DNA of 62,790 bases, the filler included, from Hausera hauseri (lineage: Eukaryota): NCBI GenBank assembly GCA_046269625.1. It is 10 parts of 10 records of this genome, joined end to end, with 100 filler letters (N's around TTAATTAATTAA, not from the genome) between each part and the next. Parts side by side here need not be neighbours in the genome. Positions count along the whole stretch, not along the records: positions 6,649 to 15,279 come from JBJURY010577671.1; positions 15,380 to 20,016 come from JBJURY010493909.1; 8 more parts are not named here. One strand, given 5' to 3'. Under the pieces are notes generated by a model. It did not search any database. It was given only the letters and a program-made list of their open reading frames with translations, and was not told the origin of the DNA. Shown piece after piece: positions 1 to 41,697 of the stretch (the first letter of the stretch is position 1; every line of letters starts with the position of its first letter). A program made the position numbers and the translations under genes.

Positions 1-2600
1 CAATTCTTTACGTCAATGTAAATGCTTGGCCAATAGTATTTGTTTAATATTCTTTCCAATGTCTTTTTCCACGACATATGTCCAGCTAAGTATGAATCAT
101 GTTCAGCCATGAGCACTTCTGCTCTTAATCCTTTTGGTATGACGATTAGTTTTCGTCCCTTTCGTTCGTAATACAATACACTTTCTTGATTTGAATCTCC
201 AGTGACGCAATATTTGTGACCATATCTTCGCAGGTGCTTTCGCAACTGATGTCCTCTTGGTGTCTTATCATCATTAACGAATTCCACAATTTGTCGTATA
301 ACATTGTCTTTTCTCTGTTCAATAGTAATCTTTAATGCCTTGTCTAAGGTGAGAGTCCGTTGTCTCTCTACTAAATTTTCAAGGTGCGCCTTCCTCATTA
401 CTGTTACTGCGCTAGTTTTGGTTTTAAGTCTAGATAATGCGTCAGCATCAACATGTTTACTTCCAGGTTTGTATTGAAATTCGATATTGTATCGTGAGAT
501 CTCTTCAATCCATCGGTTAAATCTACAAGTTGGGTTATTTGCTCTCCCTTTTAAAGTTGTGACTGCTTTATGATCAGTGACGATTATAATCTTTTGTCCG
601 TAGACATACACATTGAAATGCCGCAATGCTTCTTTTACCGCCAACGTTTCCAATTCGGTTATGGAATAATTCTTTTCCGCTTTCTTTAATAAGCGTCCTC
701 CATATGCAATCGGGTGTTCCAATCCCTCGTCTTCTCGTTTTTGTGCTTGTTCATATCCAATACCTTCCTTACTGGCGTCTGTTTTGATTATGAATGGTAG
801 GTTGAAGTCGGGATATCTTAAAACAGGTTCGCTAGTTAGAATTTTCTTCATTTTGTCAAAAGCCTTTTGTTCAACATTGGTCCATTTCCATTTGATCCCT
901 CTGTTTAATAAGCGATACATGGGTGCATTTATCTTTGTGTTTTCTGGCACGTAGGTAGCGTAATATCCACATAATCCTAGCCAATGCCTCAATTCTTTTT
1001 GATTTTTTGGGCTCTATGCAATCCGATATTTTACTTAATAGTGATTTATCCGGTTTTGATCCTTCTTCTCCAACTATATGTCCGAGGTAAGATACAGCAT
1101 TCTGAGCCCATTTACATTTTTGAGGATTCAGCTTTAATCCAGCTTGCTCTAATCTCATGAGCGTACCTTCAATACCTTTTATATGATCCTCTTCCGTTTT
1201 CGATGCAATCATGACATCGTCCAAATAAGCGAACGCGTGTTCTAGCTCCATTAGCATTTTGTTCATTATCCGGGTGAAGATGGCTGGTTCGGCAGTTATC
1301 CCAAATGGCATGACATTAAATTCGTATATACCGTTGTGTGTCTTAAATGTTGTTTTATAGCGGTGTTCCTCTTCTATCTGTACTTGCCAATATCCATACT
1401 GTAGATCGAGCGTGGTAAACCATTTAGTTCCCGAAAATCTGTCTAAAGCTTCCTTTACTGATGGTAACGGAAAAAAGTCCTTCATCATAAGTGTATTTAA
1501 TGCTCGATAGTCGATACAAAACTGGTGTTTACTGGTACCTTTCTTCTTAACCATAAGTATAGGCGAGTACCAAGATCGGTAGCTTCGTCTAATTATGTCC
1601 GCCTTTAACATTCATTCAACTTCCTTAGTTATCTCTGGCCTTAGCTAGTGTGGAGGAGGATACCATTTCGGCATCTTTTGATCCTCAAAGTCTATTTCAT
1701 CGCCAGATCCCGGCTTTTTCTTAAGCGGAATCGTGAGCCTTAAAGTTTTGACTCGACCAATATCTTCTTCGTCTCTCGCGATAATTGAACTATAACGACA
1801 GAGCAATTCGTAAAATCGACAATGTGATTCTGGCGAGAACTTAGTTTCCACGTTGGGCGGAAATTCTGCACCCTTATATGGTTTCTCTTCAGCAGTGATT
1901 GATGATACTCTACACGTGTGTCTCAAAGTGGTATTGGCGTACAATTTAGTCGGGGTTGGTGCATTATTGGCTATCCTGATTCGCAGACGGCCTGTCGATA
2001 CTCTTGTCAAAACATTACTGAGTACGAGGTTTGCTTCGAGTGATTTTTTTGGTTCGAAATATACTGGCTGATCGACATCTTTATGTATCTGAGGATATAT
2101 TAGGATTTCAGTTCTGGGTGGTATAATTTCATCCACTGGAATCCACACTTCTCCAAATTTTTTGTCTTTCGTGGTTTTAACACCTTTTATTGGGCCAAGT
2201 TCTATCAACTTGCCTGCATTGAAATCGATTGCTATATTGGGTAATTGTCTAAGTAAGTCACATCCTAACACTAAATCATCTGTTAATTGCTTCATTACCG
2301 AGAATTTATGACGAAAAGATTGTCCTATTATGTGAATTTCTGGTTTCCATCGGAATTTACTCTTCGAAGATCGTCCGAAAGCTCCGATGCTTCCTGGGTC
2401 TGTCGTATGAAGTGGATATCATTGTTTCCGTAAGAATTGTGGAATCGAATCATATTTTATCAGTGATATTTCAGATTCTGTATCTATTAGTGCATAAACC
2501 TCGCAATCTTCCAACTGAATCTTTGCGAAGGGCCTGCCTTCGATTACTGTACCGTAATGGCTTGGTGCTATCTTGGGTTGTCGTATGGTAGAGACTTTGT
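1..2600 (-). pseudogene. pol: Gypsy pol: aspartic protease, RT, RNase H, integrase N-terminus
   Basis: PR reads YALIDTESEISLI near 2460-2500 (DTG changed to DTE). RT ORF 871-1611 has FCIDYRALN, MPFG, YLDD. RNase H has TDASKEGIG, ELETLA, TDHKAV, DALSR (about 430-800). IN has HDSYLAGH...YYWP (1-110). Confidence 0.95.
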
Positions 2601-2699
2601 AACCGTTGATGGTAACTTTAGTGGTTCCAACTTGCTGCTCGACTAACTGTCTTAACTCTCCAATTGGATATAGTGCATTATTCGTTTCATTCGCCTTTT

Positions 2700-3038
2700 C
2701 TACTCTCTGGTTTCTAACTGGCGGCTGAACATCTGAAGTGCGGAGATTTCGTGCTTTATGGCTTCGAGTAAATATCGATGGTGTTTAGGTATTGGCTTAG
2801 GTATTCTGGGCGAATAAGTTCTACCGTGGTCGTCGACTGCTGATCTATGGTGTGGCACCGAGGTTTTCGCTGTTTCGTGGATCTTACGCAATATCCCATA
2901 GCGTTTTGTTCCTTCGTAACGATCCTCTAGACTAAACGGCTTGCGATAGATGTCTGTCTGGCACGAACTCATAGACTGTATCTCGCAATCTTCATATATA
3001 GGCGCTGTTGGCGGCAATATTGGTAATGGTAGTTTCAT
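2700..3038 (-). pseudogene. PTAP-containing linker preceding the protease
   Basis: LPPTAPIYED...YEGTKRYGILRK is homologous to LPPTAPVYED...YEGTKRYGILRK in ORF 7901. Confidence 0.8.
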
Positions 3039-3133
3039 AACGGAGGCATGTTGCTATCAATCGGTACTACGTTTTTATCATATTGCTCATTTTCTTCATC
3101 CGTTTGTAAATACTCAAAATACACTGCTGCATC

Positions 3134-6100
3134 TCAGACTCCTATTATTCGTCCTACCTGTTGTTCTGCTTTGGCCTTTCTTATAGTCTCTTCCTTTGTT
3201 TCATCGATAGCGGTGGTTACCACCAACCGGTTTACTTCACCTGGGATAATTCCAACTTCTATTAATATTTCCGTATCGTCTAGTATCTTTCCTCGGAAAT
3301 AAAGCCTGTAGTTTAACTCATTAGCGTACCCGTTGTGCTTTATCCACAGTAATACATCACTTACAAGGGAGCGCGTAGTGAACTTTTGTTCTTTCTCGTC
3401 CATCCAATCTGATGCTATTTTTACTAGAATCGTCTCTTCTGCCTTTGCCTTTAGAATTTTGGCACATTCTTTGCGTAGAAGCTTAGGTATTGTACTGAAG
3501 ATCGTACCTTCACTAGCTAATTTAGTTAGAGTGGAGACTAGCTGTCTTAATTGAATTTCAGTAAGATTTATTTTAATCAGCTGAGTTAAATCCTTCTCGG
3601 TTTGCGCTGGGTCCAGAAGCATTTCTACGTTGAACCTTTGTTTCGGAGAATACATTTCCATTTCGCTTAAGTGTATTGGGGTTTTCGGATTTTCCGCAAT
3701 CATTGCATCTAAATAGGCTTCCCAATCTGGTTCATTTTCACTATCTGGCAGTTGACAGTTTTTCAACGGTGTATCGGCTGGCCTGCCCACCACTGTGGGC
3801 CACGTAGTTGCTCGGAGTTCTTGTAATTTCTGTTGCATCTGGACCATTTTCGTCGTTCGGATACATCGCCCATTAGCGGACGTTTGGTGGAGCAGTGTTA
3901 ACAACAAACATAATTCTTCGGGTGGAATTAGACTCTTTTCTTGATATTTCGTTAGCTCGGACGTGAAATCTCTTTGCCATCTTTGAATGAATTGTGACTT
4001 GTCAGCCTTTTCGACTTCTGTGAGAACATATTTGTTTTTGTAGACTTCAAGTTCTCTAGCTAGTTCGTCTAACCTTATCGCTCTCTGTTTTGTCTTAATG
4101 CAAGTTTCTTCGACTTGCTGTATCTGCTGCAACAATTGCCTTAGTTCTTCGTCACTAATTTCTGCCATTTCTACCATCAATAGCGTTAGTTCGTACATCT
4201 CATTAATGTTCTTTGAATCCGGATCTATCGCACATAATAATCTTTTACGAACTTGATCTCTTTGAAGTTAAGATGGAGGTCGTTCTTTATTTTAGTTAAT
4301 TCAGTATGAAGTCTTTGATCCGTTCCATCTCTCCACTCTTGGGGACGATGTAAGAACTTAACTGCTTCTTTAACTTGTGACCGGTATTCGGGACAAAAGT
4401 TCAAAGTTTTAAGATCTCGGATCGAGATTTTTTCAATAGGTTTGGCTGTCAACCAGCGTATTCCCTTCAGGCGGACGTCTGTTAATCGTGAGTAGAAATC
4501 GCAAGTCGCATTCCGCTTTCGAGTGAAGTTTGTTTCTTCAATCATTTTATATATATCGTTTAACACCATCATCTCTTCTTTCCTTTCGATAAAGTTTAAT
4601 TGACGTAGTGCCTCGAGTTGGGTTCGGATGTCGATCTCTGCTTTCATCGTATCTAGGTTTCGAGCGTCTTCTTCCAGCTGCTTCTTAAGGGTAGGTTCGC
4701 TTTCTGGGAATTCCTTTTTCCGATCGGCCACTAATTCATTCAACCTCGTTATCACTCCTGACCATTCTTTCCACTGGTTAGCGATTTTTGGCTTTGCCAG
4801 TATTGCTTTATTTAACATTTAGCGGGAGTCGTCTAGCTGGTCATCTGGACCTCTAATAAAATCGATGATCCGGTAGGCATAGTCAAACTCATCTTTATAT
4901 TCATCGAATTCTAGGGTACAAGTTAAAATTATTTTCTGTGTTTCATTATCCGATGGGTGCATGATCCTATTCCTTAGACTATATATCTGCGACCGCTTTT
5001 CAACTTCTATTTTAAGACGGTTTTCCAGACTAGTATATTGCCTTATCGCAGTAGAAGCGATTTTTATCATTTCCATTTAGGGCAAAATATCCAATACATC
5101 TATGCCCAACATCTCTAAGTCGTTTGCATCTCGTTCCTTGACCGGCTTCTTTTTCAGTTGCTCAATTACGATGAATCTAATTTCGTCCATGACACGCTCC
5201 AAATTAAGTGCTGCTCTTTTTAATTTCCGTTTGAGATCTAATGTAGCTAATAACGACTAAGCCCAGTTGACTCTAGTTTTAATGTTTTGGGTAGTTTTAT
5301 CCCATGTCTCCGGAAATTTCGTTTTGCTTTCGATCCACCGTTCTAATTCACGTTTCCACTGAACTAGGGTTTCTTTTGCCACCTCTTCTGGCTGATCCGA
5401 ATCTATAACTTCACTTAGTTTTCCTTCGCAACACAGTTTCATATTTTTATATAATCTTGCTAGAAACTGCTGTTCCTTTCCAGAAATATCCACTTGTTCG
5501 CTCATTGCTTTGAGCTTCTCTAGATTCTGTCGTAATGTTTCTGGGTTGCGACAATTCATCCTCATTCTCTTTAACTCCTCTGCATTTTTCTACGAGCGCC
5601 TGATTTTCTTCATTTTAGGGTCGAGTTTTTCTTCTCGTTCTGTTTCCTCTTCTCTCGTAGGTAAGGGACATACATCATTTATTTCATCTATAGATTTTAT
5701 CAGCTAACCCATCTCGCTGGGCGTAACTAAATTAATTTTCGAAATGTCGGAGGCACAATCCGTTTTACTGTCTAATGCGAATTCCGTATCTTTCTTTGTC
5801 TTTGATTTTTCTTTGATTATTTGGGATCTCGAATAATCCTTACGTTTCCTTCTAAGTGATGGGCTACGGCCTCTATTCTTGGTGATTTTAAGTATAAGCG
5901 GTTCGAGAAATTCTTCTCTTTCGTCGGCCTCTGCCTCTTTGGTTACCTTCTCTGCAGTATACTCAGGTCCTAAATCCGCTTTATCCGGAGTGTCAGGCTT
6001 CCATGATTCGGTTGGTTCTTTGTTTAACGCAGGAGCGGTCTTTTTCCGAGTCATATCACTTAGCCTTGGTGGGCCTATGGAATGTTCATATTCCGTTTTG

Positions 6101-6330
6101 GGTTCACGCAGGCCACGGTAAACTTCCATTAGTCGTAATTTGTGCACATATTCATTTCTAGCCACTAAAACTTTGGGGTCCTTAGTCTCAGGCTGGGCTT
6201 TTAGAAAACGTCGTAAATCCTGTATTTCGATAATCATTCCTGTGTCTCTACAAACACCGTAAATGGCTTCTAAATTTTCGTTTTTAATTACATTTGTTTT
6301 ACTAGGTTCCACAAACGATACACTTCGCGA
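3134..6330 (-). pseudogene. Cargo region between Gag NC and PR: charged, probably coiled-coil segments and a C-terminal ubiquitin-like domain
   Basis: ORFs 5704-6366, 5257-5565, 4819-5076 and 4225-4818 share one frame; 3134-4198 follows after a frameshift. Ubl-like motif RLYFRGKILDDTEILIEVGI at 3218-3436. Confidence 0.7.
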
Positions 6331-6336
6331 ATTCGG

Positions 6337-6548
6337 ACAGGACTTCGCTGTGTCCTTCTTGTCCACATGTGAAGCAGACTAAATTGCCATTTCTTCCAAC
6401 TCTTTGTCGACCATCTTTGTTTAACGGAGATTTCGATCTACTCGGATTTCTATTATAACCTTGCTGCGGTGGAGTCTGTCTAGGGTCTCCATATTGGCGA
6501 TTATTATCACTCCGGTTTTCATTGTATCGACTCAGGTTTTTAGAGCCA
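6337..6548 (-). pseudogene. gag: Gag C-terminus with CCHC zinc knuckle (frameshifted)
   Basis: Manual translation gives ...RSKSPLNKDGRQRVGRNGNLVCFTCGQEGH/(fs)/AKSCPNSRSVSF, i.e. CX2CX4HX4C after an R/S/N-rich region. Confidence 0.85.
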
Positions 6549-6648: not shown

Positions 6649-6649
6649 T

Positions 6650-7813
6650 TTTATTAAAATTAAAGAACTAAAGTTCAATGAGACTACAGGAAAGAGATAT
6701 GTGGACAAATCAGAAACCAATTCGAGAACACGTGAGGATGTATCAGAACACTCTACACCTATTATGTTAATTTCGGATCAGCATGGATTGAAATTTATTA
6801 AAAAAGAGATGATTTCTCGCTGTGATGTAGTGATGTTTGCTACAAACTATGAAGCGTTTTTCGTCGCAGAAACGGTGATAAGTGCGAAAACTTATAAGCT
6901 AGAAACATAGGACGTCCGTATTGAAGATTGCCTGAAAAATATGGATGATTACTTCTACTTTAAAGGGCAAGTCGGAATAACGGAATTATATAATAAAATA
7001 ATAATGAATGACTGCAAATTAAATACGGAAATCATGAGAACTAAAATGGCTCTGATATATGAAAAACCAGATTTGGCTTCTCTAATAATTCCCATGAGAG
7101 AAGGAATTTTCGGTCGGGTAACAGGCGAAGCATTGCTAACCTATGAATGCGAAAAGAGGGACGTACCCATCAACGTGGAAGAAAAACGTTGCATTCAGGA
7201 ACATCCTGTTATTTACCAAAGTATTCCTAGGTTAGCTACACCGCTGACAAGAGTGTTATTGGATAATGCTACCCAGCCAACCATCCCTAAAAATTGTAAA
7301 GCAAGCTTAGGAAAACCCATATTTAGACGTAGTGAAACAGACTGGGTAAGCTTGCCAAACGGAGATATTATTGCCGTTCCAAATTAACTGACAGAAACAA
7401 ATCTTGAGAAAGGAATTACAAACGAAAAATTTCAAGATACCTCATCAAAAGGTATATATAGGCCAAAAGAGATTGAACCATTCAGACAATTCCTCGCTTT
7501 TCCGCGACAGCGAACGCACGAATTGAACCGAGCCATGGCCTCAGTAGTAGACGATACATGATATAAAGCTAAATGGGAATCATTACTTAGCGTAAACCAT
7601 TATCTATTAGTACCCACGGAAATACTCTACAAAATTTGGGGAAGATTTTTGATTTTCGGACAAGCCGCATCCGGATTCTTAGTGATATATTTTATGATAC
7701 AAATGATTGAGGCAGTCATCCAAGCAGTAATAAATGGGTACAAAATATTTACACTGATTGGATTTTCATGTAAAATACTGATGGTGATCATAATGCCCTT
7801 TGGAAAATTCTAA
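6650..7813 (+). pseudogene. Chuvirus (Jingchuvirales)-like class III fusion glycoprotein, C-terminal half with membrane anchor
   Basis: GIFGRVTGEALLTYEC..CIQEHPV..PLTRVLL..NC..P.F..W, then KGIY..FLAFP..KIWGRFLIFGQAASGFLVIYFMIQMIEAVIQAVINGYKIFTLIGFS. This matches the recalled chuvirus G pattern (G..AGEV..C..CY.ELPV..P.TRIL; GIY..FP; W..F..FG..SAG..GY). One frame, with stops at 6908, 7385, 7559 and 7811. Confidence 0.85.
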
Positions 7814-7900
7814 AAGGCATACGAAGAAAACAGATGGAAATCGGACGTAGAACGCCATGTCGGTTATTATAATCGTAAACAAAGAGGAAGGCCTATATTC

Positions 7901-9247
7901 TTGCGGAAGGGGAAATTTACAAAAACCAATATGCACAGAAATAACTCACATGATGACGATCCTAAGGGAGGAGACGTACTTCCTGGGATAAACAGACATA
8001 AGACATACTCTGTCATTAAAGCGCTATTGCCTATGCTACCGCCCACCGCTCCGGTCTACGAAGACTGGGATAAATGGTCAATGAGTTCATATCAGGCGGA
8101 AATTTATAAAAAAACAATTAATGAAGAAGGCCCTTATGAAGGAACGAAACGTTATGGAATCCTACGGAAAATGTGTTACCGACAATCCACAGATGGTCCC
8201 AAGATGTTGTATTTTCCGAGAGAACCACAGAATATAGAAACTAGATCAACAGTTTGGGACAACCCAAGGTTAAAAACCTTCCAGAATACCGAACTACACA
8301 CTAACAATGAAGAACCATTAATTAGTACGCACAAAACGGCAGAATTGCATATAAAAAACACCGAGCTATATCCAAACGAAGAATTAAGACAATTGTCGGA
8401 GAATATAGTATCCTTCCCCGAAATCCGAATCAACGGACATAAAATATCGGCGCTGAAACGCTCGAAGGATACATCGAACTGCTTTGGAACAGTAATAGAA
8501 GGAAGACCTTTCGCCAAGATCACTATCGAAAATTGGGAAGCATATGCCTTAATCGATACAGGATCTGAGATGTCTTACATTAAAAATGATTCAATACCTC
8601 AAAAATTGGGAGGTCAGTTATATCCGCCGTTTACGAAAGATCCAGGAAGTACAGGAGCTTTCGGTCAAATGTCAAAACCAATGTTTAAATGGAACCCAGA
8701 AGTTCAAATAGTTGGACAATTTTTCCATCATGAATTTTCAGTTATGGAGCAATTAACCGACGACGTAGTCTTAGGATGTAATTTACTGTTCAGGCCAAAT
8801 AAAGGCGTAAAAAACGCTAAGGATAAAAAATTAGGAGAAGTGTGGATATCATTTGACGAAAACATCTCACCAAGAACAGAAATGATAATTTATGCCCAGA
8901 TACAGCAAGATGACGATCAACCAGTATATTTTGAACCAAGAGATACGTTGGATCCGAATATATTACTCAGCAATGTATTAACAAGAGTACATTCCGGTCG
9001 AGTACCAATCAGAATAGCTAATAACGCGCAAACTCCTGTCAAGCTCCATGCTTATACTATGTTAGGAGACACCTATAGAGTATCATCCATAACCATCGAA
9101 GAAAAGCCCTATAAATATGCTGAATTTCCACCCCATGTCGAAACTAAATTCTCAACCGAATCTTATTGTAGATTTTACGAATTATTATCCGCTACAAATC
9201 TATTATCGCTATGGACGAAGAAGATATTGGTAGAGCAAAAGCATTAA
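7901..9247 (+). pseudogene. pol: PTAP linker, retropepsin protease and degenerate beta-rich spacer domain
   Basis: LPPTAPVY, ALIDTGSEMSYI, DVVLGCNLL. Frameshift near 9190 relative to the contig 1 homologue. Confidence 0.9.
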
Positions 9248-10560
9248 AACAAACCATTCCACTCAAGGAAAAGCCTGGTTCAAACGAAGAAATAGATTTA
9301 GAAGACCAGAAGATGCCAAAATAATACCCTCCACCACATTCGCTAAGACCTGAGATAACGAAGGAAGTTGAACAAATGCTTAAGGCCGATATAATTAGGC
9401 TTAACTATAGATTTTGGTATTCACCAATCCTCATGTTTAAGAAGAAAGGTACCACAAAACATCGATTTTGTATTGATTACAGAGCCTTGAATAATCTTAT
9501 GATGAAAGATTCTTTTCCATTACCATCAGTAAAAGAGGCTTTGGATAGGTTCTCAGGAGCAAAATGGTTTACCACCCTCGACTTACAATCCGGATATGGG
9601 CAAGTAGAAATAGAGGAAGAAGACCGCTATAAAAAGGCATTTAAAACACACCATGGCGTTTATGAATTTAATGTCATGCCGTTCGGTATTACTAGTGGAC
9701 CAGCCATATTTACGAGAATGATGAATAAAATGCTAATGGGACTGGATCATGCTTTTGCGTACTTAGATGACGTAATGATAACATCAAGGACCGAAGAGGA
9801 ACACTTAAAGAACATCGAACATACGCTGATGAGATTGGAACAAGCCGGATTGAAGTTAAATCCGACGAAATGCTAATGGGCTCAAAAAGCAGTATCCTAT
9901 CTTGGCCATATAGTTGTAGAAGGAGGATCGAAACTGGATAAATCGTTACTAAACAAAATATCGGATTGCATAAAACCACAAAACCAGAAGAAGCTAAGGC
10001 ACTGGTTAGGACTTTGCGGATATTATGCAACCTATGTGCCAGGCAATTCAAAAATTAATGCACCTTTATACCGTCTACTTAAAAAAGGAATTAAATGGAA
10101 ATGCAGAGACGTCGAACAGAAAGCCTTCGACGAAATGAAGAAGATATTAACAAGCGAACCTGTATTACGATATCCAGAATTTAACTTGCCCTTTATAATC
10201 AAGACAGACACCAGAAAAGAAGGCATTGGTTATGAATTTGCGCAGAAAAGAGAAGATGAAGAATTAGAACACCCAATTGCTTATGGAAGACGATCTTTGA
10301 AAAAGGCTGAGAAAAACTATTCTGTTACCGAATTAGAAACTCTAGCTTTAAAAGAAGCACTTCGACACTTCAATGTTTACGTATATGGGCAGAAAATTAT
10401 AATTATTACCAATGACAAGGCCGTTATGACCTTAAAAGGATGAGCAAACAACCCGACATGCAGACTTAACAGATGGATCGAAGAAATATCAAGATACAAT
10501 ATTGAATTTCAATATAAACCAGGGAATAAACATATACACGCGGATGCACTATCGAGATTA
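9190..10560 (+). pseudogene. pol: Reverse transcriptase and RNase H
   Basis: FCIDYRALN, MPFG, YLDD; RNase H TDTRKEGIG, ELETLA, ADALSR; internal stops at 9874 and 10441. Confidence 0.95.
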
Positions 10561-10859
10561 AAGACGAAAACAAGCGCAATCACTATAATGAAAAAGAGTC
10601 AACTTGAGGAAATAATAGACCGCCAACGCGCTTTAACGATGGATAAAGCCATCAAAATCTCAACAGAACAAAGAAAGGTTAAGTCATCCATCAGATTATA
10701 GAATTTGCTAAAAAGGATATCATACCAAAGGGACGACAGTTAAAGAAACATGTACACCGACACGGACATAAATACTGCGTCTTAAATGACAAAAGCAATG
10801 AGGATATTTTATATTACGAAAGGAAAGGAAGAAAATTGGTAGTTATTCCAAAAGGACTA

Positions 10860-11940
10860 CGTACCGAAGTGCTGATGTCAGAACATGATTCTTAATTAGC
10901 CGGACACATGTCCTGGAAGAAGACATTAGAAAGAATAATGAATAAATACTTTTGGCCCAGTATCCATATTGGTGTAAAAAATTGGGTGAACGCTTGTGAA
11001 GTATGTTCAACTAAGCAAAAAAAAACGAAAAATTACATGGCCGAATTAAAACCAATTGATGTATCCGATATGCCCATGCAAGCCATGTCGATGGATATAG
11101 TAGGACCTCTTCCTACGATTCACAAGAACAATAAGTACATCTTAACTTCTATCGATCGATTAACTCATTTTGTCGAATTGATAGCATTAATTGATCAAAA
11201 GGTAGAAACCTTGGCAGAAGCCGTAGTAAGAAAAATCATTTGTCGATATGTACCCCCAGACCAGATACTCACAGATCGAGGAAGAAATTTTACCGGTGAA
11301 CTTTTCGAGAAGATTTCCAAAATATTTAAAATCGAACAGTTGACGACTACTGCGTATCATCCTCACTGTAATGAGATGGTAGAACGAATGAACGCAACCG
11401 TCATACGTATATTATCGGCAGTGGTTGCAAAGGACCAGAAAGATTGGGATGAATTTCTAGAAGGAACCCAATTTGCAAATAATACTACACCACATCCAGC
11501 GACAGGATTCACCCCATTTTTCATGATGTATGGACGTTAAGCCGTGTTACCTACGGATTTAGGAATGACGCCATACACGGTTAATCCCGAGTATTTGGAG
11601 CAAAACTTTGCAGAGGTGCTACAAACGCGATTGCGGAAGTGTTGGAAAATCGCCAAAGAATTATCCCAAGAATATTAAGAGCAGTTTAAAAAGCAGTATT
11701 ATAAGAAAGCGAAACCGCATGATATAGAATATGGAAATTGGGTTTATGTGCATTATCCAGTAGCCAAAAAAGGCACATCATTAAAATTAACTAATACAGG
11801 CAGAAGACCGTACGAAGTTACCAGAATTACGCCGACCACAGTATACATTAACAAAAACGGAAAGGAAAAAGTCGTGTCAATACAAAGAGTTGCCAAAACA
11901 GACATACGGCCAAATAAACGTTACAACTTACGCCAACCCG
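10860..11940 (+). pseudogene. pol: Integrase (HHCC, DDE core, GPY/F-like C-terminus)
   Basis: EHDS*LAGH...CEVC, MDIVGPLP, TDRGRNF, NEMVERMN, TGFTPF, GRRPYEV, RYNLR. Confidence 0.93.
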
Positions 11941-11949
11941 ACACAAAAA

Positions 11950-13379
11950 CTTCTTCAATAGTTGCTAGACCGATATTGCACGTTCAGATAGTTTTAGAAC
12001 TATCGTTAACTGCTTCGTACATTCGGAAAACACAAACTCAATGGTGGCACGATTATTCTACACTAGGAGATATACATGGAATTCAGAAAAGTGGATCAAA
12101 ATTGGAAGCTGTTGAAACGGAAAAGAAACCAACAGCCGAAGAAATCCAAAGACAAGAAGACATTAAATTATTACAATCAATGACAATTCATTATTATTCA
12201 CCAAACTCCGTATGTGTTGGATTTAAAGCTTGGAAACCGCATCACGATTTCGATGATTTCAAATTGTCTTACTTGACGTAACCACAAAATAAGCGAGAAA
12301 TTGTGATTTTGAGCCTGCAGACTATATGCAGTGTTGCGACATAGACTTTGGACGCACTTATAACCTCACCTATCGTCCATACTTACCTTACTCATCCGAA
12401 GTTTATATTGAAACAAAGTTACAAATTCAATTAGTCATTTCTGCATGGAATAGATATCATGGAATAAAACCGAACGAAATGTTGCGATCTGTTGACCCAG
12501 ATATAAGAATATTAGACGAAAATATCCGGAGAATCTCCGTAAATAAGGAAAAACAATGCATTCAAGTCGATGCTCGAACAGGATTAACTCTTAGTCAGGG
12601 AATTAATATCCATTTGAAGCAGCAGTTAGACCGACCCCGAAAATAGGATACTGTTCTATTCGTACAGGCGTGCAACATCCATGTTGTAAAGTACCCGTGA
12701 ACCAAGAGTTCAAAATAAAGTTCGACTTATATGAGGTACGGCAAATAAACTAAACATACAATTACGAACTTACTATCCAGAAAATAGAATTTGGAATATT
12801 TCAGTAGAAACAACCACCAAAAGACCGACTACTCAAGTTGGTGCCATTAAGAATACCATTACATCGGGCAGCATGCCTAAGAGAAAATTAGAAAGCATAC
12901 CTATTAAATATTCGGCGCATCAACTTAAAATTGTTTTTCATGGAGTAAAAACAAAATTACGATATACACATAAGTTGTCGAACGACATATAATAATCAAA
13001 TTGTAACATTATTTAAAATCATTTACCAAACGGAGTGCAATTTACTAAAACCACAATTCAAATACTTAGTACAGGTGCATGCAGAAAACAAACAATCCCA
13101 AACAATTACATTGCATATCTTAGACAAAATTCACGCGGAGTAGCATACGCATGAAAATATAGACGACGAAACTACAACGTCATTTACTACTCGAGCGCCA
13201 CTAGGATCAACTGCCTTACCGATTGCATCTATTGCGTACTGTCAACGTCTGTTCTCATTATATTAATTGCGATTTTTCGACTAGTTACCAAAAACTGTTA
13301 TTCTAAGCGTCATAAAAATTCGGAATGGGATTTAAGGGAGTTGGAAAACCCCGTAGACCTATATGATAAAATAAACTGA
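11950..13379 (+). pseudogene. Putative type I membrane protein with fibronectin type III-like repeats, continuing from the integrase frame
   Basis: Hydrophobic ILHVQIVLELSLTAS after RYNLR. FN3-like SPNSVCVGFKAW..FKLSY..DIDFGRTYNLTYRPY..SSEVYIETK and NLLKPQFKYLVQVHAENK. Thr-rich stalk, TM-like PIASIA/(fs)/VLSTSVLIILIAIFRLV, tail ending LYDKIN* at 13379. Confidence 0.6.
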
Positions 13380-13451
13380 CAATTACAGATCAGGTTATAC
13401 TGTCATCAAACAAAGAATTGGTTTTGGTTTAAGACCATCCTTTGTTTTAAG

Positions 13452-13477
13452 ATTAACCTTTATGTTTTCATTTTTAG
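13452..13477 (+). promoter_or_regulatory. Putative 3' splice acceptor
   Basis: ATTAAC branch-like motif, T-rich tract, TTTTTAG, immediately before an ORF with no ATG. Confidence 0.5.
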
Positions 13478-13478
13478 A

Positions 13479-14003
13479 TTGGTAGGTAATCAGATCCATA
13501 TAGACCCAAGCCGAATTAGAATCGACGCCAAGGGAGTCACGAGCCGACTTAGCATCGACAATGAGGAAAACACAAGTCGACTGAGTATCGACGAATTTTT
13601 ACAGCGATACGTAACAGTGCGAATTCCGAATTTAAAGGCCATCTATAGGCAAATCAATAGGGAGTTACAAGGAAAGAGCTTCGTGCAGTATGTGAAAGCT
13701 GGCGAGATACCAAATGGGTTAAAAGGGACAACCGAGGAGGCCAGAGAGGTATACTTGTACATATGGAGAGAGGACAAAGATTCTAGGGCATACCCCTTCA
13801 AACAGATCACTCAATATTAAGTGGATAAAGAGCAGAAGATATATGTACACTTGGCCGACGGGGAAATTTACTATCGGATGAAAGATCAGAAATGGGACTC
13901 TTTCCAAGAAAGGCAAAGCCGATTTAGTACGTTTGTAGTTGATAGTAGGAACTTCCGTAACTATGAGTTGGAATTTCGTGTGTCTGCCTTACCTGTAAAA
14001 TGA
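13479..14003 (+). pseudogene. Accessory ORF of unknown function (two same-frame pieces split by a TAA at 13818)
   Basis: ORFs 13479-13820 and 13821-14003 are contiguous and in frame. Confidence 0.5.
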
Positions 14004-14636
14004 TGATCGAAGTAACGGAAGAGAAAACAATACCCATCTCGTTGCCGTTCTTAGAGTTTAGACAAAGGCCCACGGAAGAAGAACATGACGCACATCTACA
14101 TTCGTTTAGATTGGTAGCAGATGAAAGGAATCTCAGGATTGCCGCAATAAACTATGGGGAAGGAGAAGACGGAAATTATATTCCGATCGAAATATCCATC
14201 CGGGTCGAAAACTGGGCCGAGGTCTATTCGAGAATCATTAACCCGAGAAAGAAAGTATTAGAGACTTATGCAGATGTTACCGGGATTAACAGAGCAATTA
14301 AATCATGGGAAGGATACCAAGTTAGTGGAACAAGAAGTAGCACAATGCCTCTATGGATACGTCTTAGTGGGGTATCAAGTAGAGAGGATGATAAAGAAAT
14401 TAGCCATACCGGTAACGCATATAGCCGGAGTGAGAGATATAGAAACCCACCCGACTGTTATTAGACAAATGGAGATTAATGTTGAAGAGAAAAAGGGTCA
14501 ACTACCACCGACCGTGGAAGGCCGTTTTAAGTTAATGGTAGAGACCATGACCGGAGGAAATATAAAAATAAGCAGACTGTTGACTGCTAATCAAAGATCC
14601 AAATATCTAAGGGATATAAATGCTGGATTAAAATAG
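14000..14636 (+). pseudogene. Accessory ORF of unknown function, probably frameshifted
   Basis: Overlapping ORFs 14000-14464 and 14268-14636; ATG overlaps the previous stop (ATGA). Confidence 0.45.
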
Positions 14637-14795
14637 GAACACGAATGGATTCCAAATAACCCCGGACAGAACCTTCGGAGTTTTCCCAAGCTAGAAGGAA
14701 TCAGCTCACGTTTTAGAAAAAACTTTCGTTCTTACTCAGCACCAAAAAATGTCGAAATTACACCGAAATGGAACTATCAAATAACCATTCAGGGA

Positions 14796-15251
14796 TTGAA
14801 AACTGAGAAAACAGATAATCAGTGGCAAACCAACGAGAAACCAGTCCAAAGCTATGACACCTCAAGCAATAATAATCCATTTAAAGTACCCGAAATTGTT
14901 CAGAAATACTTAGAAGAAAAAGATAAGAGTTCAGAAATCGAGAGTGAAAAGACAACTAAAAGAGAAACATCCTTCTTCGATTACTTATTTAAGAAGAGAA
15001 GTAAAGAAGAAGAAAAGGGATCAAAAGAAGGACGCAGACCAGACAGAAAGGATTTAAAACCAACACGACCAGATAAACCAAGAACACCAGCAGAAGAACT
15101 CTCAAAAACAGACATGCAGCCCCGTATCGAGAAGTCCACGGAAAAACCAAGCAAACAGAAAGAACAAATAACAGAAATAAACGTCCTACGGAAGAAGACA
15201 TCCACGGAAGATGTTCACTACGCCACTGCAGCAGATTATCCCAGGATGTAA
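14796..15251 (+). CDS. Charged low-complexity accessory ORF fragment
   Basis: K/E/P/T-rich 151-aa ORF on the element strand. Confidence 0.35.
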   Translation: MKTEKTDNQWQTNEKPVQSYDTSSNNNPFKVPEIVQKYLEEKDKSSEIESEKTTKRETSFFDYLFKKRSKEEEKGSKEGRRPDRKDLKPTRPDKPRTPAEELSKTDMQPRIEKSTEKPSKQKEQITEINVLRKKTSTEDVHYATAADYPRM

Positions 15252-16211
15252 ATAGCCACAGAATATTATAGCAAACAAANNNNNNNNNNNNNNNNNNNNN
15301 NNNNNNNNNNNNNNNNNNNNNNNTTAATTAATTAANNNNNNNNNNNNNNNNNNNNNNNNNNNNNNNNNNNNNNNNNNNNCCGCTACCCCAAAGAACGCGC
15401 CCGCTTCGACCGCGAATACTACTCCTCCCTCGCACACCACCGCCATGACGCTCCCAACGGAACCACTTGATATACCCCCGCCAGACCCACGCACCCGCCC
15501 AACCCAATCCATCCCCTCCTCACCTCAGATCACCAACCCGAAAGCCCTCTCCCACCGTACGCCTCAATCCCCGCTCCCCCGCCTCAGCCCGTGTCCGTCC
15601 GTGTCCGTCCGTCCGCACTGTCTTCTTGTTTATTATTCTAATATGTTCCCCTTTCATTTAAACGCCGTTTTGTTTTATTGCACGTCTATATGATTTACAT
15701 TAGAATTATTGTGTAAGTAATCAGAAGAATCTCGCAGCCAGACAATTTTCACTGTTGATTTTACGTAACTGGTAGACCATTTCTTGAATGCGTCATCACT
15801 TTAACCATCCTAGATGTGCCCCATGGAACGATTTCCATAAGTGCTTCAATGATACGCTGTCGCCGGTGACAAAATTAGTGATTTGTTCGCCGCTGAGGTT
15901 TTGTAGCTAATAGCTCATTCTACATCTGCCGAGGGAGGTCAAACCAAGCTGCCTACATAACTAGTGACCACATTCTGTAAAGAGGTTGCGTCAATAAATA
16001 GTCGGTTTCATATTCGTACACCGGCCATGGTGGAATAAGGGGAAATAAAGAGGAGACAAATTAGAGAGCATGACTGCTACAGCAAACAGTAGAGCAATGG
16101 ACGGGGTAGATGTACTGAACACTTTCACGTGTATAGATCGAACAGGGGATTCAAATGGTGCCTTGGAGTCAAACGAAGTGAAAAATGTTGTTGGGCACGA
16201 GTGTTACGCCG

Positions 16212-26817: not shown

Positions 26818-28069
26818 TAAATTGTCATTTTTTTCTCCAAAAGGTTTTTAGGTTTTAAAAAACTCAGTATAAAGAGCACACCATATATTACATGCATAAA
26901 ATCTGATTAAATTTAGTTTGTTTTTATGCAATCAGAGGAATTCTGGACAGCAGGGAGAAGTGCATTTGTGTTTCACATTTCATCTTACAAGATGGATCCA
27001 TTAACCCTTATTAAAAATTGATACAGTGCTATTGAGAATCCATAGTGTCAGGAACTGAAATATCATGATATTTTAGTGTAACAATATATTCTTACACCCC
27101 TACAACATGTGTAAAGTAATTTTGCCGATAACGATTTTTGCTTAACTCCCCCCTCCTCCTCTACCACTATTTGAACTGTACCCACCCTGTGCACCCCCTT
27201 GCCTAAATGCTCCGGTGCTCACGTGAGCCCAAAATGTGTGAATAATGCCTAAACAAAGATGGAAGAAAAGGCATGTATAGGAAGGAAAACATGACAGAGA
27301 TGCAGAAAGACAACACGTAAGTTGGACTGATAAAGGTTTGCTGATCAATAAACAGCATAGGTACTTTTTAACACCAGCTGATCTGAAGCAGTCTGAGCTG
27401 TGATGAAAACTAATACTGTAGAAAACTCCACCATACATTTCTGAGGGAAGACTTTAAAAATTAAATGTATTCAGCCAACCCATTCTCACTCCCAACTCAT
27501 CACATATTTACACTTTTCAAGGGTCCTTATTTGTCCTTCTGCGTCAAAGGCTGACAGTGGACATCCTGAGTTAGTTCTGGGGTAACTTGGTGCAAATGAA
27601 TGCCTCAGATCGATTCTGCCCATGAACACAACAAGCAGGATCTGAGAACAGGGGCAGTCCTGCAGAGTCCAACTGTGCCTGCTTAATTTTGTGCTAACTT
27701 AACACAGCGTTTCGACCACACCCTAATCCAAGATGGCAGCATTGTTTGGTCTAACTGTACCAGATTGACTACGTGGGACAAAATTATTCATTGCTGATGG
27801 ATTGATGTGCCTGAGCCCTTCATGACAAAGGCAAGTTATCTATCTTTCTCATTTCTCTGCATTAATTGATTTTTTTCATTTTGGGATTAGGTTTGGTGTT
27901 GATTTTAGCCTGCTTTGTTCACAGCACCATTTCTACTGGTCTTCTTCCTGTTAATAAGTGGTGTGTCTGAACGAGCTGTCAGTAAAAGCAGGAAGTAAAC
28001 TCTGGACTAGAAACCTACAGCATTGGATTTTATTTAAAAGCTCTCCATAAACTGACATAAACTGAGAGA

Positions 28070-31000
28070 ATGAAGTCTATAATGCTATTGCTGCTTGCAG
28101 TACTCTATTCAGGAGTCTGGTGCTGTTGCTGGACAATGGTAGATCCTCTTCGCAATGTCAATCAACAGAGCAATTTCACCCTTCATCTGGAGAAAGATAA
28201 AGATTCAAGTGACATTTATCCTGGAATGTTTTTTCATCCTACTCTTCTGTTCTTCAAAAATTGTGTGAACTTAAATAATTTGGTTAGTATTATGACACTT
28301 CAGGATCATTTTATGGTTTCTGTAAATCACCTGGCCTCTTTTACATCAACTCTTTGCATAAAAAGAAAAATATCCTTTAAAACATCAAAACATAGAGGAT
28401 TGATCATTTTACTGTTAATAATGGCTGGCAATGTTGAATCAAATCCTGGGCCTGATGTAAATACCACCTTTGCTACACCTGCTGATTTTAAAGAAAGAAA
28501 CGGCCTTGGTTTTATTCATCTAAATGTCCGGAGCTTATTAACAAAAATGGATATGATACGTGTTTGGGCATTATCTACAGATGCTGATGTCATTGTGCTG
28601 TCTGAATCATGGTTATCCAAATCTGTACTAAATAAGGAGGTCTCAATCAATGGATACAATATTTTCAGAACCGATAGACCAAAAAGAGGTGGTGGTGTTG
28701 TGATCTATGTAAAGACCAAGTTCCAATCAAACCTGATTCTGTCCAAAACTGTGACAAAACAGTTTGAATTTCTAGCAGTTGATTTGCAAATCTCTGAAGT
28801 TCAACACATGTCAGTGGTTGGCTGCTATAGAACACCTTCAGCCCCCACTGAAACTCTTCCGTCTTTGGTACAGCTCATCTCTGGATTGAATCCAAAGGAA
28901 ATAAAAATCTTGGCTGATCTGAATTGGGACTGGTTACAACCAGTTTCGGATGAATTTAAAGCTAAGTGTGATGCTTTAAATTTGTTTCAGTTAGTTAGTA
29001 GTCCTACCAGACCTAGCATCAAAACCCCCCATAAATCATCACTCATTGATCTTATATTGACAAATGTTCCACACAAATATACTTCTGCTTCTGTGTTTGT
29101 TAATGACATCAACGATCACTGTGTCATCGCTACAATGAGGAGTGCCATAATTCCTAAATCTAAACCCCGTATTATCATAAAACGTGATCTGAAACATTTT
29201 TCTGAACAAGGTTTTATTCATGATCTGTATCATTTCAACTGGGACAGAATCTATGTAATCCCCGATGTTGAACATGCTTGGAACTTCTTTCAAGATAGCT
29301 TTTCTAAAATAGTAAATAAACATGCTCCGTTTAAAAAAACTAGGGTAAGAGGTAGAAATAATGCTTGGTTTACACCTCAGCTTTCAAATATGCTTCATGA
29401 GCGTAATTTAGCATTGGCAAAACCAAGGAAATCTAATCTAACTCTGATTGGCTCAGCTTTGGAAAACTGCGAAATGCTTCAACAGTTGCTGTAAGGAATG
29501 CAAAAGCCCAATATTTTTTGTCCGAAACATCAAAAAACCTAAATAATCCCCAGAAGTTCTGGAAGACCATCAAATCTTTAAATGGAGATTTAAATCACCC
29601 AGAGTTCCCTTCATGTATTATGAAAGATTCTCATTTTATCTCTGACAGATTGAAGATGCTTGATTGCTTTAACAAGCATTTTATTGCTTCAAGTTCTATT
29701 TTTGAATCTCTTAATACTTCACAAAACTCTTTCACCTCCACCAGTTCTGGCATTCAGTCATCTTTGGCACAATCCTTTTGTTTTTCCCCTCTAACATTCT
29801 CAGAGGTACATAATGCCATCAAAAGTCTAGATTCTAAAAAATCAGCAGGTCCAGATCAGTTGGATGCACTTTTCTTAAAACAAGCTGTTGATTTCATTTC
29901 ATCCCCTCTGACATACATTTTTAATCTTTCCCTTAGTTCAGGGCAAATCCCGTTGGTTTGGAAGTCTGCCTTTGTACTTCCTCTCTTTAAAGATGGGGAC
30001 CCAACTGATATGAATAACTACAGGCCCATCTCTAAGTTGTCTGTACTGGCCAAAGTTCTGGAGTCTTTAGTCAGTGAACAATTAAAAGACTTTTTAACCT
30101 CTAATAGTATTTTAACTGACTCACAGTCTGGTTTTAGAGCAATGCATAGTACTACTACAGCAACTTTAAAAGTATTAAATGATGTCATTGGTATTTTGGA
30201 TAAAAAACAACATTGTGCAGCCCTATTTCTGGATTTATCAAAAGCCTTTGATACAGTTGATCATGAAATATTGTTGAGAAGGCTCTCTGACATTGGACTC
30301 TCTCAGCAGGCACTCAAGTGGTTTACAAACTACTTGTCCAACAGATCACAATGTGTGCAGGTGGAAGGTCTTTCTTCCTCTTGTCTTCAAACACTCAAGG
30401 GTGTTCCTCAAGGCTCTATCCTAGGTCCGCTTCTTTTTATAATCTATATTAACAGTTTAGATAACAATGTGCCACATGCTCATTTTCATTTTTATGCTGA
30501 TGACACCATCTTGTATTGTGCAGCTAACTCAGTACAGCGTGCTTTTGAAAAACTACAAGCTGCTTTTAATGTGGTTCAGTCAAATCTATGTAATCTAAAA
30601 CTTGTTTTGAATTCTCAGAAATCTAAAGTAATGCTGTTTTCTAACACTAAACCAAAGTCTAAACCAAATCTGTTGCCACCCATCATCACATCTCAGGGCT
30701 CTCAGATTGAAATGGTTTCTCAGTATAAATACTTAGGTTTTGTTATTGATGAATCGCTGACTTTTGTTCCCCACATTCAGCAACTGATAAAAAAGCTAAA
30801 GATAAAGCTGGGTTTTTATTTCAGAATCAGAGCTTGTCTATCTTTTGAGGCTAGAAAACGTCTTGTTGCTGCTACATTTTTACCCATCTTAGATTATGGA
30901 GATGTGATTTACATGCACGCATCTTCTCACTGGTTGCATTTGTTGGACTCTGTATATCATGGAGCCTTGCGTTTTATCACTGGTCTCAGAGCTCTTACCC

Positions 31001-31573
31001 ACCACTGTCATCTGTATACCAGTGTTGGATGGACTGCCTTATCCACCCGCAGATTTGTTCATTGGCATATTCTTGTTTACAAAGCAATCTTGGGTTTACT
31101 TCCCCCTTACCTCCTGTCCCATATCAATAAGAAAAACATTGGAAGTCATTTTCTCCGCTCGGATGAACTCATTTTATTAACAGTACCTAAGGTTCGCACT
31201 GACTTTGGCAAAAGATCCTTCCACTTTGCTGCTCCCTCAGCCTGGAATCTACTGCAGAAAGATTTGAAGTTGAAGGAGTCGGTTTCTTTGAATGTTTTTA
31301 GGGTCATTCTTAATCAGTTTGTACTCAAGACATTTGTTTGTAAATGTTTTAACTGATTTTGTTTTCTGTTTTAGTCCTGTCTTATCTTTTATGAGTGTTT
31401 CTTGTTTTACTGTTATTTATCATGAAATGTTTTTAATGTAGTTTAATACCTGTAGTGTTGCATTTTGTAATATTTGTGTGCTGCTGCCATTCTTGGCCAG
31501 GTCTCTCTTGAAAAAGAGATTTTTAATCTCAATGAGTTCTACCTGGTTAAATAAAGGTTTAATAATAATAAAA
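28070..31573 (+). mobile_element. L2-clade LINE, near full length ORF2 (APE endonuclease + RT) with one frameshift near 29440
   Basis: HLNVRSL, LSESWL, DLNWD, NDHC (EN); NYRPIS, QSGFR, LDLSKAFDTV, GVPQGSILGP, YADDT (RT); 3' stem-loop then CCTGGTTAAATAAAG and an (AAT)n tail. Confidence 0.93.
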
Positions 31574-31934: not shown

Positions 31935-32408
31935 ATATGTGTGTAATTAATGTGTTAAATAGTGAAGCATGGAGTCATAATATGAATATGACTTGTTAAT
32001 CAGAATATGATCAACAGTTTGTGACGAAGAGAATCAATATAATATAGTGTTAACAGTCATAATTTTTTAGAGATTCACAGTGGTGGAGTGTGTTTTGATT
32101 AGGAAAATTTTTAATTTGTTATTGCTCATGCAAATATAGAAGCCTTTCATGCGTGCATTCTAGTATATTACAGGAGATTGTACAGATTTTATATTGAAGT
32201 GAAACTTTGGAAACAAAAAGGGAGGAATGAGATCACACACGTTGACACGTATTCCCACACAGTTTAAGGAAGAGATTCTAAAACTGGGGTCCCAGGACCC
32301 CCAGGTNNNNNNNNNNNNNNNNNNNNNNNNNNNNNNNNNNNNNNNNNNNNTTAATTAATTAANNNNNNNNNNNNNNNNNNNNNNNNNNNNNNNNNNNNNN
32401 NNNNNNCA

Positions 32409-39000: not shown

Positions 39001-39426
39001 CTTCCGTATATTATTATTTTTAAAACCTCCATTATGCCTGTAAATTAAATTATTATCCAAGTGAAGGACCAGAGAGTCTGACAGATGTGAGTACGTATTG
39101 TATTGCAGTAAAAGTTCTCTGGAGTACTGAAGCCTGGTGACGTGGGGATGTCCATGGCAGACGTTGTAGACGCCGAGTTCAAGAGCAATTATAATCCACA
39201 AAACAAATACAAGAAGCAGATCCATGATCATATCCTCTTCAATGTGATCTTCAGTAGTTCAGACAATAAAAAATGTTAAATGCGACTTCCAAAAACTTAA
39301 AAAACTTAAAAAAAAAAACTCAATTCAATTCAGTCAGAACACTCATACTTTCCACCTGCTGCTGGTCGCTACAAGAGCAGGTAGAGCAGGAGAGGGAGGT
39401 GGGTGATGAGGAGTTGGTGAGTGGAG
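36088..39426 (-). mobile_element. Rex1/Babar-clade LINE, apparently full length
   Basis: Single EN-RT ORF; 3' end CCCTAAGGGGACAATAAAAG followed by a (TGA)n tail at 36088-36110. Confidence 0.88.
36262..39231 (-). CDS. Intact 989-aa APE endonuclease-reverse transcriptase
   Basis: RKRGKRGG, LSNVQSL, LTETWL, GDFN, SDH; DFRPVALTS, QFAY, DFSSAFNTI, GSPQGCVLSP, FADD, YKYLG; no stops. Confidence 0.95.
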   Translation of the reverse strand: MIMDLLLVFVLWIIIALELGVYNVCHGHPHVTRLQYSRELLLQYNTYSHLSDSLVLHLDNNLIYRHNGGFKNNNIRKRGKRGGVRLRKRRLGINRTPLPTMILSNVQSLRNKTDELQANVLHLHEYRNACLLALTETWLSNNDSDLDIELDGFGVPVRLDRDNGATGKSHGGGVCIYINKRWSNNVKVRDIICTPDVELLSVSVRPFYLPREFPQIFITVVYIHPKANIKNAAHLINQSTEKLQLLSPDAPVFILGDFNHCKLKSSLTHFYQYVTCPTRFNKTLDLCYGSIKDAYRSFLLPPLGSSDHSTVHLVPIYKSVLKREAAQIKTVKRWTKDAIQHLQSSLDCTDWSVFTHPEGQQDLLAGEVDLNELTSTVCSYINFCEESCIPVSHVKVYPNNKSWINKSLKNLIIEKRTCFKEGNAERRKEAKKLVRTEIKKAKLNYKEKLEQHFKSSNLKTVWNGMSAMTGTQKVRNSYIKLNGFNSDNDLANNFNNYYLRFDSKDFRDQIKQIKQEISSYPFSGCTFNVQDVKSVLSRTKITKSPGPDNISGCILKHCADQLSGVFNHIFSQSLEQQKVPALWKKSTIVPVPKNKSPKVISDFRPVALTSLVMKAFEKLMKKKLVESVEDKLDPLQFAYRCDRGVDDAILTLLNLIFKHIDGLGSSVHLLFVDFSSAFNTIQPHILTRKLLNDFNLCPSVAGWVLDFLVDRSQCVRVNGSMSYEAFSSTGSPQGCVLSPLLYILYTNDCRSQYINRHILKFADDTVIVSLLQGEDDSPGQVVEDFIMWCDNSYLKLNVSKTKGMCIDFRKKSSPAPSLLIKNETVESVSCYKYLGVVIDKKLTFSENTDKVSKKAHQRLHFLRKLNKFGVCKKLMIIFYNSLIESVLTFAFITWFGSLSIGDKNRMQQIVKVAGKIIGVRLPDVKDTFLKRVLQKAEHIINSPNHPLHDEFELLPSGKRFRQPKSRTNRLKNSFISQAIIQINFKYNQA

Positions 39427-41630: not shown

Positions 41631-41697
41631 AAATAATGTAGTCTGTACAACAACAAACTACAAATACCATTCCCATGCTCATTCAGACATTACTACC

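Follow-up and report, generated by a model that had tools for sequence, protein, structure and literature searches.

A decayed, probably Burro-like Ty3/gypsy element with a fusion glycoprotein ahead of Pol and a predicted FN3-type membrane protein behind it

We describe a decayed retroelement at positions 6649–15279 of a 62,790-nt stretch of DNA from the Hausera hauseri assembly GCA_046269625.1 (hereafter the window, ten contigs joined by spacers). The element occupies exactly one contig, bounded by spacers and cut at both ends. We consider it probable that this is a decayed Ty3/gypsy element of the Burro-like kind; in its intact relatives, a single frame encodes Gag, a fusion glycoprotein (G), Pol and a further membrane protein. 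Such an element would spread in enveloped form, with G serving entry and a fibronectin type III (FN3) protein serving attachment. An earlier note on this DNA had read the series G, PTAP linker, protease (PR), reverse transcriptase (RT), RNase H (RH), integrase (IN), FN3-like membrane protein and splice acceptor on one strand, and this series is confirmed by Pfam, profile and site scans. Gag, long terminal repeats, primer binding site and polypurine tract were not seen in 6649–15279, which is cut before the element ends. The contig has no internal repeat above 32 nt, and there are no long direct ones in the two metagenomic relatives L001 and L002, which are also cut before their ends.

The contig opens within G (6650–7810, plus strand), of which about the C-terminal 60% is present. 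With stops read as X, this stretch matches PF24664 (Monjiviricetes_fusion) with an E-value of 5.5e-38 over profile positions 245–591 of 653, and hydropathy and the G tree agree with a chuvirus/mononegavirus-type fusion glycoprotein. Because the match begins at profile position 245, the front 40% of G lies off the contig. There is a hydrophobic membrane anchor at about 7643–7810, and stops fall at 6908, 7385, 7559 and 7811. G is probably a class III, gB-like fusogen by analogy, since chuvirus-like G is reported to be structurally gB-like (PMC13524379). A sequence search of the PDB with G gave protease matches only and no gB. The cytoplasmic linker that follows (7814–8500, plus strand), placed by frame reading and hydropathy, contains a PTAP motif at 8042–8053 that is also present in a sister element on contig 1 of the window, and this motif might serve as a late domain. 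G, the linker and PR form one frame, reading through four stops.

All of Pol lies downstream on the same strand. PR (8501–8788) has a D-T-G motif and matches PF00077 above the cut-off (E 1.1e-4). By alignment, the spacer between PR and RT (8810–9097) is common to the clade of relatives described below and sits in the position of the dUTPase-like domain of Burro; a PDB profile search gave no dUTPase match there, though the spacer is conserved. RT and RH span 9181–10680, with RT at 9439–9915 (YLDD) and RNase H at 10108–10497, and Pfam matches this region with PF00078 (E 6e-37), PF17919 (E 2.7e-29) and PF17917 (E 2.4e-25). It is damaged by frame changes near 9.2 kb and near 10680 and by stops at 9322, 9874 and 10441. 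IN (10686–11950) comprises an H2C2 zinc finger, core and C-terminal part (PF17921, E 1.1e-16; PF00665, E 1.6e-12), with stops at 10893, 11538 and 11676. The order PR-RT-RH-IN, in the window and in the relatives, is that of Ty3/gypsy (Metaviridae), and the closest named proteins are Gypsy-type Pol. A Pfam scan of the contig gave no BEL/Pao or Copia domain and no match to DUF5641 or peptidase A17. The G-to-IN stretch contains ten stops and two frame changes, and thus the copy is dead, as the earlier note had held.

Intact relatives establish the full layout. A phmmer search with G and PR against 1.84 billion protein representatives gave 384 matches at E ≤0.001, the best of which are long polyproteins. 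Among 18 long matches that were scanned, G is followed by PR in 12, and 5 run on into RT. A metagenome scan provided L001 and L002. The latter has one open reading frame (ORF) of 3,703 codons that extends from Gag, with two CCHC knuckles, to the tail after a transmembrane (TM) segment. On its Gag side are two ubiquitin-like stretches, a helical Bcl-2-like stretch, a signal, G, its anchor and two proteases; on its Pol side follow RT, RH, IN, a signal, two beta modules, a stalk, the TM segment and the tail. Behind it come a coiled-coil ORF and then an exonuclease ORF. L001, with a 3,426-codon ORF that is open at the 5' end, has a similar layout. When the G of L002 was searched against proteins of more than 2,000 aa, 15 matches were found, 11 of them new; the order G-PR-RT-RH-IN is present in 9 of these 11, and the other 2 end before RT. 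A word-index search for the window G among longer proteins yielded none in 1,605 candidates, and no relatives of G were found in the viral contigs or prokaryote genomes searched.

The relatives are 2,600–4,800 aa long and come from ENA or JGI metagenome assemblies or from mis-binned metagenome-assembled genomes (MAGs). Two of the proteins, P0012 (HBK71150.1) and P0221, are deposited under bacterial MAGs (Flavobacteriaceae, Turicibacter) and probably represent mis-binned eukaryote contigs. The order within their single ORFs is Gag, a ubiquitin-like domain, sometimes a Bcl-2-like domain, G, one or more PRs, RT, RH, IN, a signal, an ectodomain and a TM segment. Thus G, Pol and the FN3 protein do lie in one element and one ORF in intact relatives, a point that the earlier note had set for checking. 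Two CCHC knuckles are found in Gag of P0168, P0169 and P0170 as well as L002. A ubiquitin-like profile built from three proteins matches 11 of 22 other relatives, and P0169 matches Pfam ubiquitin (E 4e-5) and PF11976 (E 0.0015), both below the cut-off. Pfam matches to Bcl-2 in P0017 and P0168 (E about 0.001) are also below the cut-off; the helical domain is shared by 7–8 of 27 proteins, and a PDB sequence search with it gave no Bcl-2 match. Ankyrin repeats occur in P0162, P0168 and P0169, and there was no BIR or MATH match in the proteins scanned. Some polyproteins (P0162, P0013, P0170–P0175) carry 2 to 7 retropepsin-like stretches each, one of them after IN, together with C2H2 fingers or ankyrin. 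In addition, a 1,000-aa protein (P0113) has three Ig domains immediately N-terminal to a chuvirus-type G, a further case in which an Ig-like ectodomain is combined with this fusogen.

The window copy belongs with these polyproteins by most comparisons. Its G falls inside a 19-row clade of polyprotein G (starred in our trees; SH-aLRT 99), in a quick tree and on a long branch, and stand-alone and downstream G proteins are placed apart from this clade. For IN, the top 24 of 116 matches are clade members, ahead of the other 92, and for PR plus spacer the same is true of the top 17 of 87, within a comparison set that came from searches with G and with the RT of L002. A quick RT tree places the window copy and its sister inside a 30-row clade (SH-aLRT 93). 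The trees consist of search hits only, with 5 of 139 rows dropped from the quick RT tree and 2 of 45 from a careful RT-RH tree. The RT placement is unstable, and on the sequence comparisons we take the copy to be a fast-evolving clade member. Since the G tree and the RT tree show matching subgroups, G appears to have travelled with Pol and not to be a nested insertion. P0027 and P0030, which also have G before Pol, form a group apart from the main clade in the G tree and the RT tree alike; the post-IN part of P0027 contains three hydrophobic segments and no FN3 module.

The second membrane protein, at 11958–13379 on the plus strand, was delimited by hydropathy, a profile of FN3 modules and bridging contigs. 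It reads as a type I membrane protein with a weak signal-like stretch (11958–12014), an ectodomain, a Thr-rich stretch, a TM segment at about 13206–13295 and a short tail. Frame changes near 12250, near 12610, between 12700 and 12950 and near 13234, plus stops, interrupt it. The ectodomain holds at least one FN3-fold module, at 12922–13104. The module profile was built from eight modules of intact relatives (five seed proteins) and iterated on clade members, and this segment is its top match across six frames of the window (E 8e-6); on the contig alone, the match scores 17.6 bits, against at most 6.7 bits in 40 codon shuffles. Leave-one-protein-out profiles recovered the module in all five seed proteins. 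Among proteins with a complete IN, a condition that removed 3 of the 26 clade proteins and 54 of the 107 others, the profile matches 16 of 23 clade members, a count that takes in the proteins that built it, and none of the 53 remaining Gypsy proteins. Two or more hydrophobic segments follow IN in 18 of the 23 and in 1 of the 53, and 3–4 of the 23 seem to end early.

A structural model of the module in L002, to which the window module aligns, has seven strands and a pLDDT of 65. Nearly all of the top 50 matches to it among 48,161 chains are FN3 domains (Z 7.7–6.2, root-mean-square deviation about 3 Å over 70–87 residues), and all 14 weak PDB sequence matches of the module are FN3 proteins. Z-scores below 8 are indecisive alone, and it is the agreement of the matches that decides; we therefore assign the module, with moderate confidence, to the FN3-fold beta sandwiches. 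Across the clade, the topology of the post-IN protein is constant and its ectodomain is variable. Modules number from 0 to 3, and in P0177, P0178 and P0200 this position is taken by an ectodomain of another, Cys-rich type, with a PPxY tail. An extra module is found upstream of RT in L001 and P0182, and in L001 the signal-module-TM unit is repeated between two proteases ahead of RT. For the post-IN and 3' pieces of the window, Pfam gave no match, and pairwise phmmer and tblastn searches did not tie them to relatives; profiles alone did so. Atlas searches with 12293–12643 and 14000–14461 returned no usable match.

Downstream of the TM segment there is a T-rich splice-acceptor-like site (13459–13477, plus strand), one of two AG sites on the contig with at least 15 pyrimidines in the 18 positions upstream. 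It is followed by what was previously described as three unknown ORFs. This stretch is likely to be a single 3' accessory gene (13476–15251, plus strand) with a recognisable exonuclease-like domain, consisting of an unknown N-terminal domain, an ISG20/REX4-like exonuclease-related domain and a charged tail, with frame changes near 13996 and 14290 and stops at 13818 and 14634. A profile built from three ORFs (of L001, L002 and contig 10 of the window) matches 13641–13874 in the N-terminal domain (E 0.04) and 14280–14471 in the exonuclease stretch (E 8e-7); a weak match in a neighbouring frame, 14177–14287 (E 2), abuts the latter. On the contig the profile reaches 17.1 bits, and none of 40 shuffles exceeded 0.9. 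Because the three pieces are in profile order, and because other copies show short indels at both frame changes, including the meeting point of the last two pieces, we read the ORFs as one gene.

The 3' ORFs of relatives are known from L001 and L002 only, and a search with the start of the 3' ORF found no relatives in the viral contigs searched. The first 3' ORF of L001 matches PF00929 (E 1.4e-5) and ISG20L2 (E 2.4e-8), as well as ISG20 and SDN1, and in its alignment with ISG20L2 the first and last catalytic motifs are retained. The window copy matches in the middle of the exonuclease stretch alone and its catalytic residues are not evident, which fits both decay and family-wide loss. In L001 and L002, each of the four 3' ORFs is preceded by a T-rich tract with an AG that lies immediately ahead of the first ATG (three ORFs) or 2 nt before it (one); together with the site ending at 13477, these acceptor-like sites point to spliced accessory mRNAs. 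On contig 10 (58584–62790, minus strand), an intact 369-codon ORF has the N-terminal domain and the exonuclease family match (L001/L002 profile, E 5e-8). It is flanked by two RING-finger ORFs that are 83% identical, on a contig with no pol. It could mark the 3' end of some related element, or an accessory cassette that is shared.

Much of this layout is known. The earlier note had regarded a fusogen before Pol and a chuvirus-type G in a Gypsy element as new, and both are already published (PMC6431247, PMC13524379). Burro/GYPSM1, a giant Ty3/gypsy element of planarians, has env in frame between gag and pol, and this env matches mononegavirus fusion proteins (PMC6431247). According to the text available for that element, the features in common are one giant ORF, Gag with 2–3 CCHC knuckles, the in-frame env, a ubiquitin/SUMO-like domain before env (PF11976, also matched by P0169), a PR-RT spacer and accessory ORFs, with ankyrin repeats in some relatives and a tentative BCL2-like domain (here below cut-off). 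The window copy agrees with the in-frame env of Burro through its G-PR frame; its Gag side is off the contig and is seen in the relatives. The membrane/FN3 protein after IN and the exonuclease ORF set it apart from Burro as described, where the word "fibronectin" is absent from the available text (PMC6431247), and, of the ankyrin, BIR, MATH and RING cargo of Burro, BIR and MATH are unseen in the relatives scanned. Burro is delimited by an RT that groups with Schmidtea Burro, a triclad host and a size above 25 kb, whereas the relatives here are polyproteins of the lengths given above. We call the element Burro-like, and suppose that it works like Burro, from its likeness to the published description.

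Other known systems share parts of the layout. GAG-ENV-POL Ty3/gypsy elements, termed ancient errantiviruses, with an HSV/gB-type Env, are reported from Nematoda, Bryozoa and Platyhelminthes, and chuvirus-like G stands beside gypsy pol in 114 arthropod elements (PMC13524379). They share the Ty3/gypsy pol and a gB/chuvirus-like Env ahead of it. They differ in that they are described as ordered ORFs, in elements listed at about 12–18 kb including flanks, in a main text that, as far as available, is without the words "polyprotein", "fibronectin", "exonuclease" and "accessory" (PMC13524379). Juno and Vesta, LTR elements of bdelloid rotifers, have ORFs downstream of pol that encode a DEDD exonuclease, coiled-coil and TM proteins (PMC5408684). 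In the portion of that report compared, their exonuclease is DEDDy (RNase D-like), whereas the relatives here match the DEDDh enzymes ISG20L2, ISG20 and SDN1; there is no fusogen before pol, and the TM ORFs are separate and out of frame with Pol (PMC5408684). The Anakin BEL/Pao elements (Dezordi et al.) carry a chuvirus G of the same Pfam family (PMC13524379), but their pol is BEL/Pao and their G is downstream. The post-IN FN3 membrane protein and the ISG20-like ORF were not found described in the literature compared, from the parts of it available and with the original Burro papers, Repbase and GyDB outside the comparison. Thus the overall layout is known, and the two added modules appear to be undescribed.

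The sister element, which lies on a separate contig of the window (1–6548, minus strand), agrees with the present one in 72% of nucleotides along 2,557 nt of pol. It contains the last part of Gag, in which the zinc knuckle is broken, a long charged helical region, a ubiquitin-like domain (a weak match, E 0.006, to the profile from three proteins), the PTAP linker, PR, RT, RH and the start of IN. The charged helical coding sequence between the knuckle and the ubiquitin-like domain is about 3 kb long and has no Pfam match. In the public run X1, 23 contigs depart from the sister at 3045; pieces bridge 3076–3294, and none of those listed bridges 3045.

The rest of the window is heterogeneous. A second decayed Gypsy element (PR, RT, RH, IN) at 44279–47631 is unrelated to the finding. 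There are two near-intact elements of the long interspersed (LINE) type with endonuclease and RT (28061–31356 and 36262–39258) and a Mab-21-like ORF (32355–33758), which we take to be fish-like; on that assumption, the assembly may be a mixture of host and invertebrate DNA. One 5.8-kb contig (20117–25890) is made of degenerate TTC-rich tetranucleotide repeats. An ORF at 41386–42081, in AT-rich, virus-like surroundings, contains only one TBP-like half, which is divergent (PF00352, E 1.4e-7). Three ORF pieces at 52363–54718 (minus strand), without a Pfam match, presumably resemble the major and minor capsid proteins of Maverick/adintovirus elements.

The domain order, the single ORF of the relatives, the pairs of hydrophobic segments around G and the post-IN ectodomain, the extra protease domains between modules and the exonuclease-like 3' ORF behind an acceptor-like site are all observed, and they suggest how such an element could work. 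The chain would thread the membrane of the endoplasmic reticulum (ER) four times, by a signal, the G anchor, a second signal and the FN3 anchor. Gag and Pol would then remain cytosolic and both ectodomains would be lumenal, and signal peptidase together with the element's own proteases would free the parts. G would act in entry as a class III fusogen, and the FN3 protein would bind a molecule on the host surface as its attachment partner. The 3' gene would be read from spliced RNA, and its product may trim or bind RNA, either countering host RNA defence or processing the RNA of the element.

Several observations weigh against this proposal. The internal signal after IN is under the hydropathy threshold used for the window copy. 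The structural model of the module is of middling quality and the best PDB sequence match has an E-value of 0.019. The careful RT-RH tree puts the window copy outside the starred clade on a branch of 2.15, and the approximately unbiased (AU) test (p 0.38) neither rejects clade membership nor shows it. One X1 contig omits 11906–13266 (short side, 29 letters). Furthermore, G can be missing in close kin, since the ubiquitin-like domain of the sister runs straight into the PTAP linker without G. A single ORF also implies equal amounts of Gag, Env and Pol, unlike in retroviruses. These last two points favour a different reading, that no free particles are made, that the membrane modules serve to hold Gag and Pol at the ER or to aid local cell-cell contact, and that G is dispensable. 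We consider this unlikely, because full-length G is intact and tracks the Pol subgroups over 15 giants, and individual lineages commonly lose env.

Another alternative is that the contig is chimeric or consists of insertions nested in one another. It is short and truncated on either side, unrelated contigs are joined in the window, and no listed contig of the two public runs that contain the family (X1 and X2; 27,213 and 1,812 contigs, mostly 80–95% alike) bridges the G-linker joint, the TM-acceptor joint or the entire stretch. Against this, all 30 bins of the finding are covered in both runs, the joint between the end of IN and the post-IN ORF is bridged by X1 record 7 and X2 record 13, and the module-TM and acceptor-3' ORF joints are bridged among the contigs listed. 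The identical order in the single ORFs of many independent relatives, the absence of internal repeats noted above and the nearest relatives of every module falling in one clade make this explanation very improbable and already largely refuted. Thus G, Pol and the FN3-like protein form one Metaviridae-type element. A stronger alternative keeps the same element and the same role of G, and has the FN3 protein remain at the producer-cell surface, where it would mimic a receptor, act as a decoy or block superinfection. Burro1 IAP cargo is reported, in the part of the source available, to act on host stem cells (PMC13465017), and the clade has other host-modulating cargo (ubiquitin-like, Bcl-2-like, ankyrin). 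The FN3 structural matches are cytokine and adhesion receptors. The ectodomain, with 0 to 3 modules and an unrelated Cys-rich form in three members, varies in a way that would suit a decoy no less than an adhesin, which is a further point against attachment. However, the FN3 protein is retained by almost every member whose C-terminus is complete and is made one-to-one with G, and a stalk with membrane-distal beta domains is a common layout of attachment proteins too. We regard the decoy as possible but rather doubtful, and favour attachment.

The window copy is dead and without evident host function. The relatives show that Burro-like elements form a considerable family outside the planarians sequenced so far, concealed in metagenomes and in mis-binned bacterial MAGs. 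Cassettes (signal-ectodomain-TM, extra proteases, ubiquitin-like domains, ankyrin) shift around within one reading frame. Among class III fusogens, herpesvirus gB needs partner proteins and others act alone. A conserved membrane protein whose ectodomain varies and which is produced one-to-one with G is a candidate fusogen partner. The transmission mechanism of most Env-bearing Ty3/gypsy elements outside Drosophila is described as unknown in the text available (PMC13524379). We put forward, tentatively, a widespread invertebrate Burro-like lineage with a flavivirus-style membrane-threaded polyprotein (capsid, class III fusogen, Pol and FN3 attachment protein) and spliced 3' genes that include an ISG20-like exonuclease. 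If true, Metaviridae would have evolved, independently of retroviruses, both an entry machinery of two glycoproteins and a complex genome.

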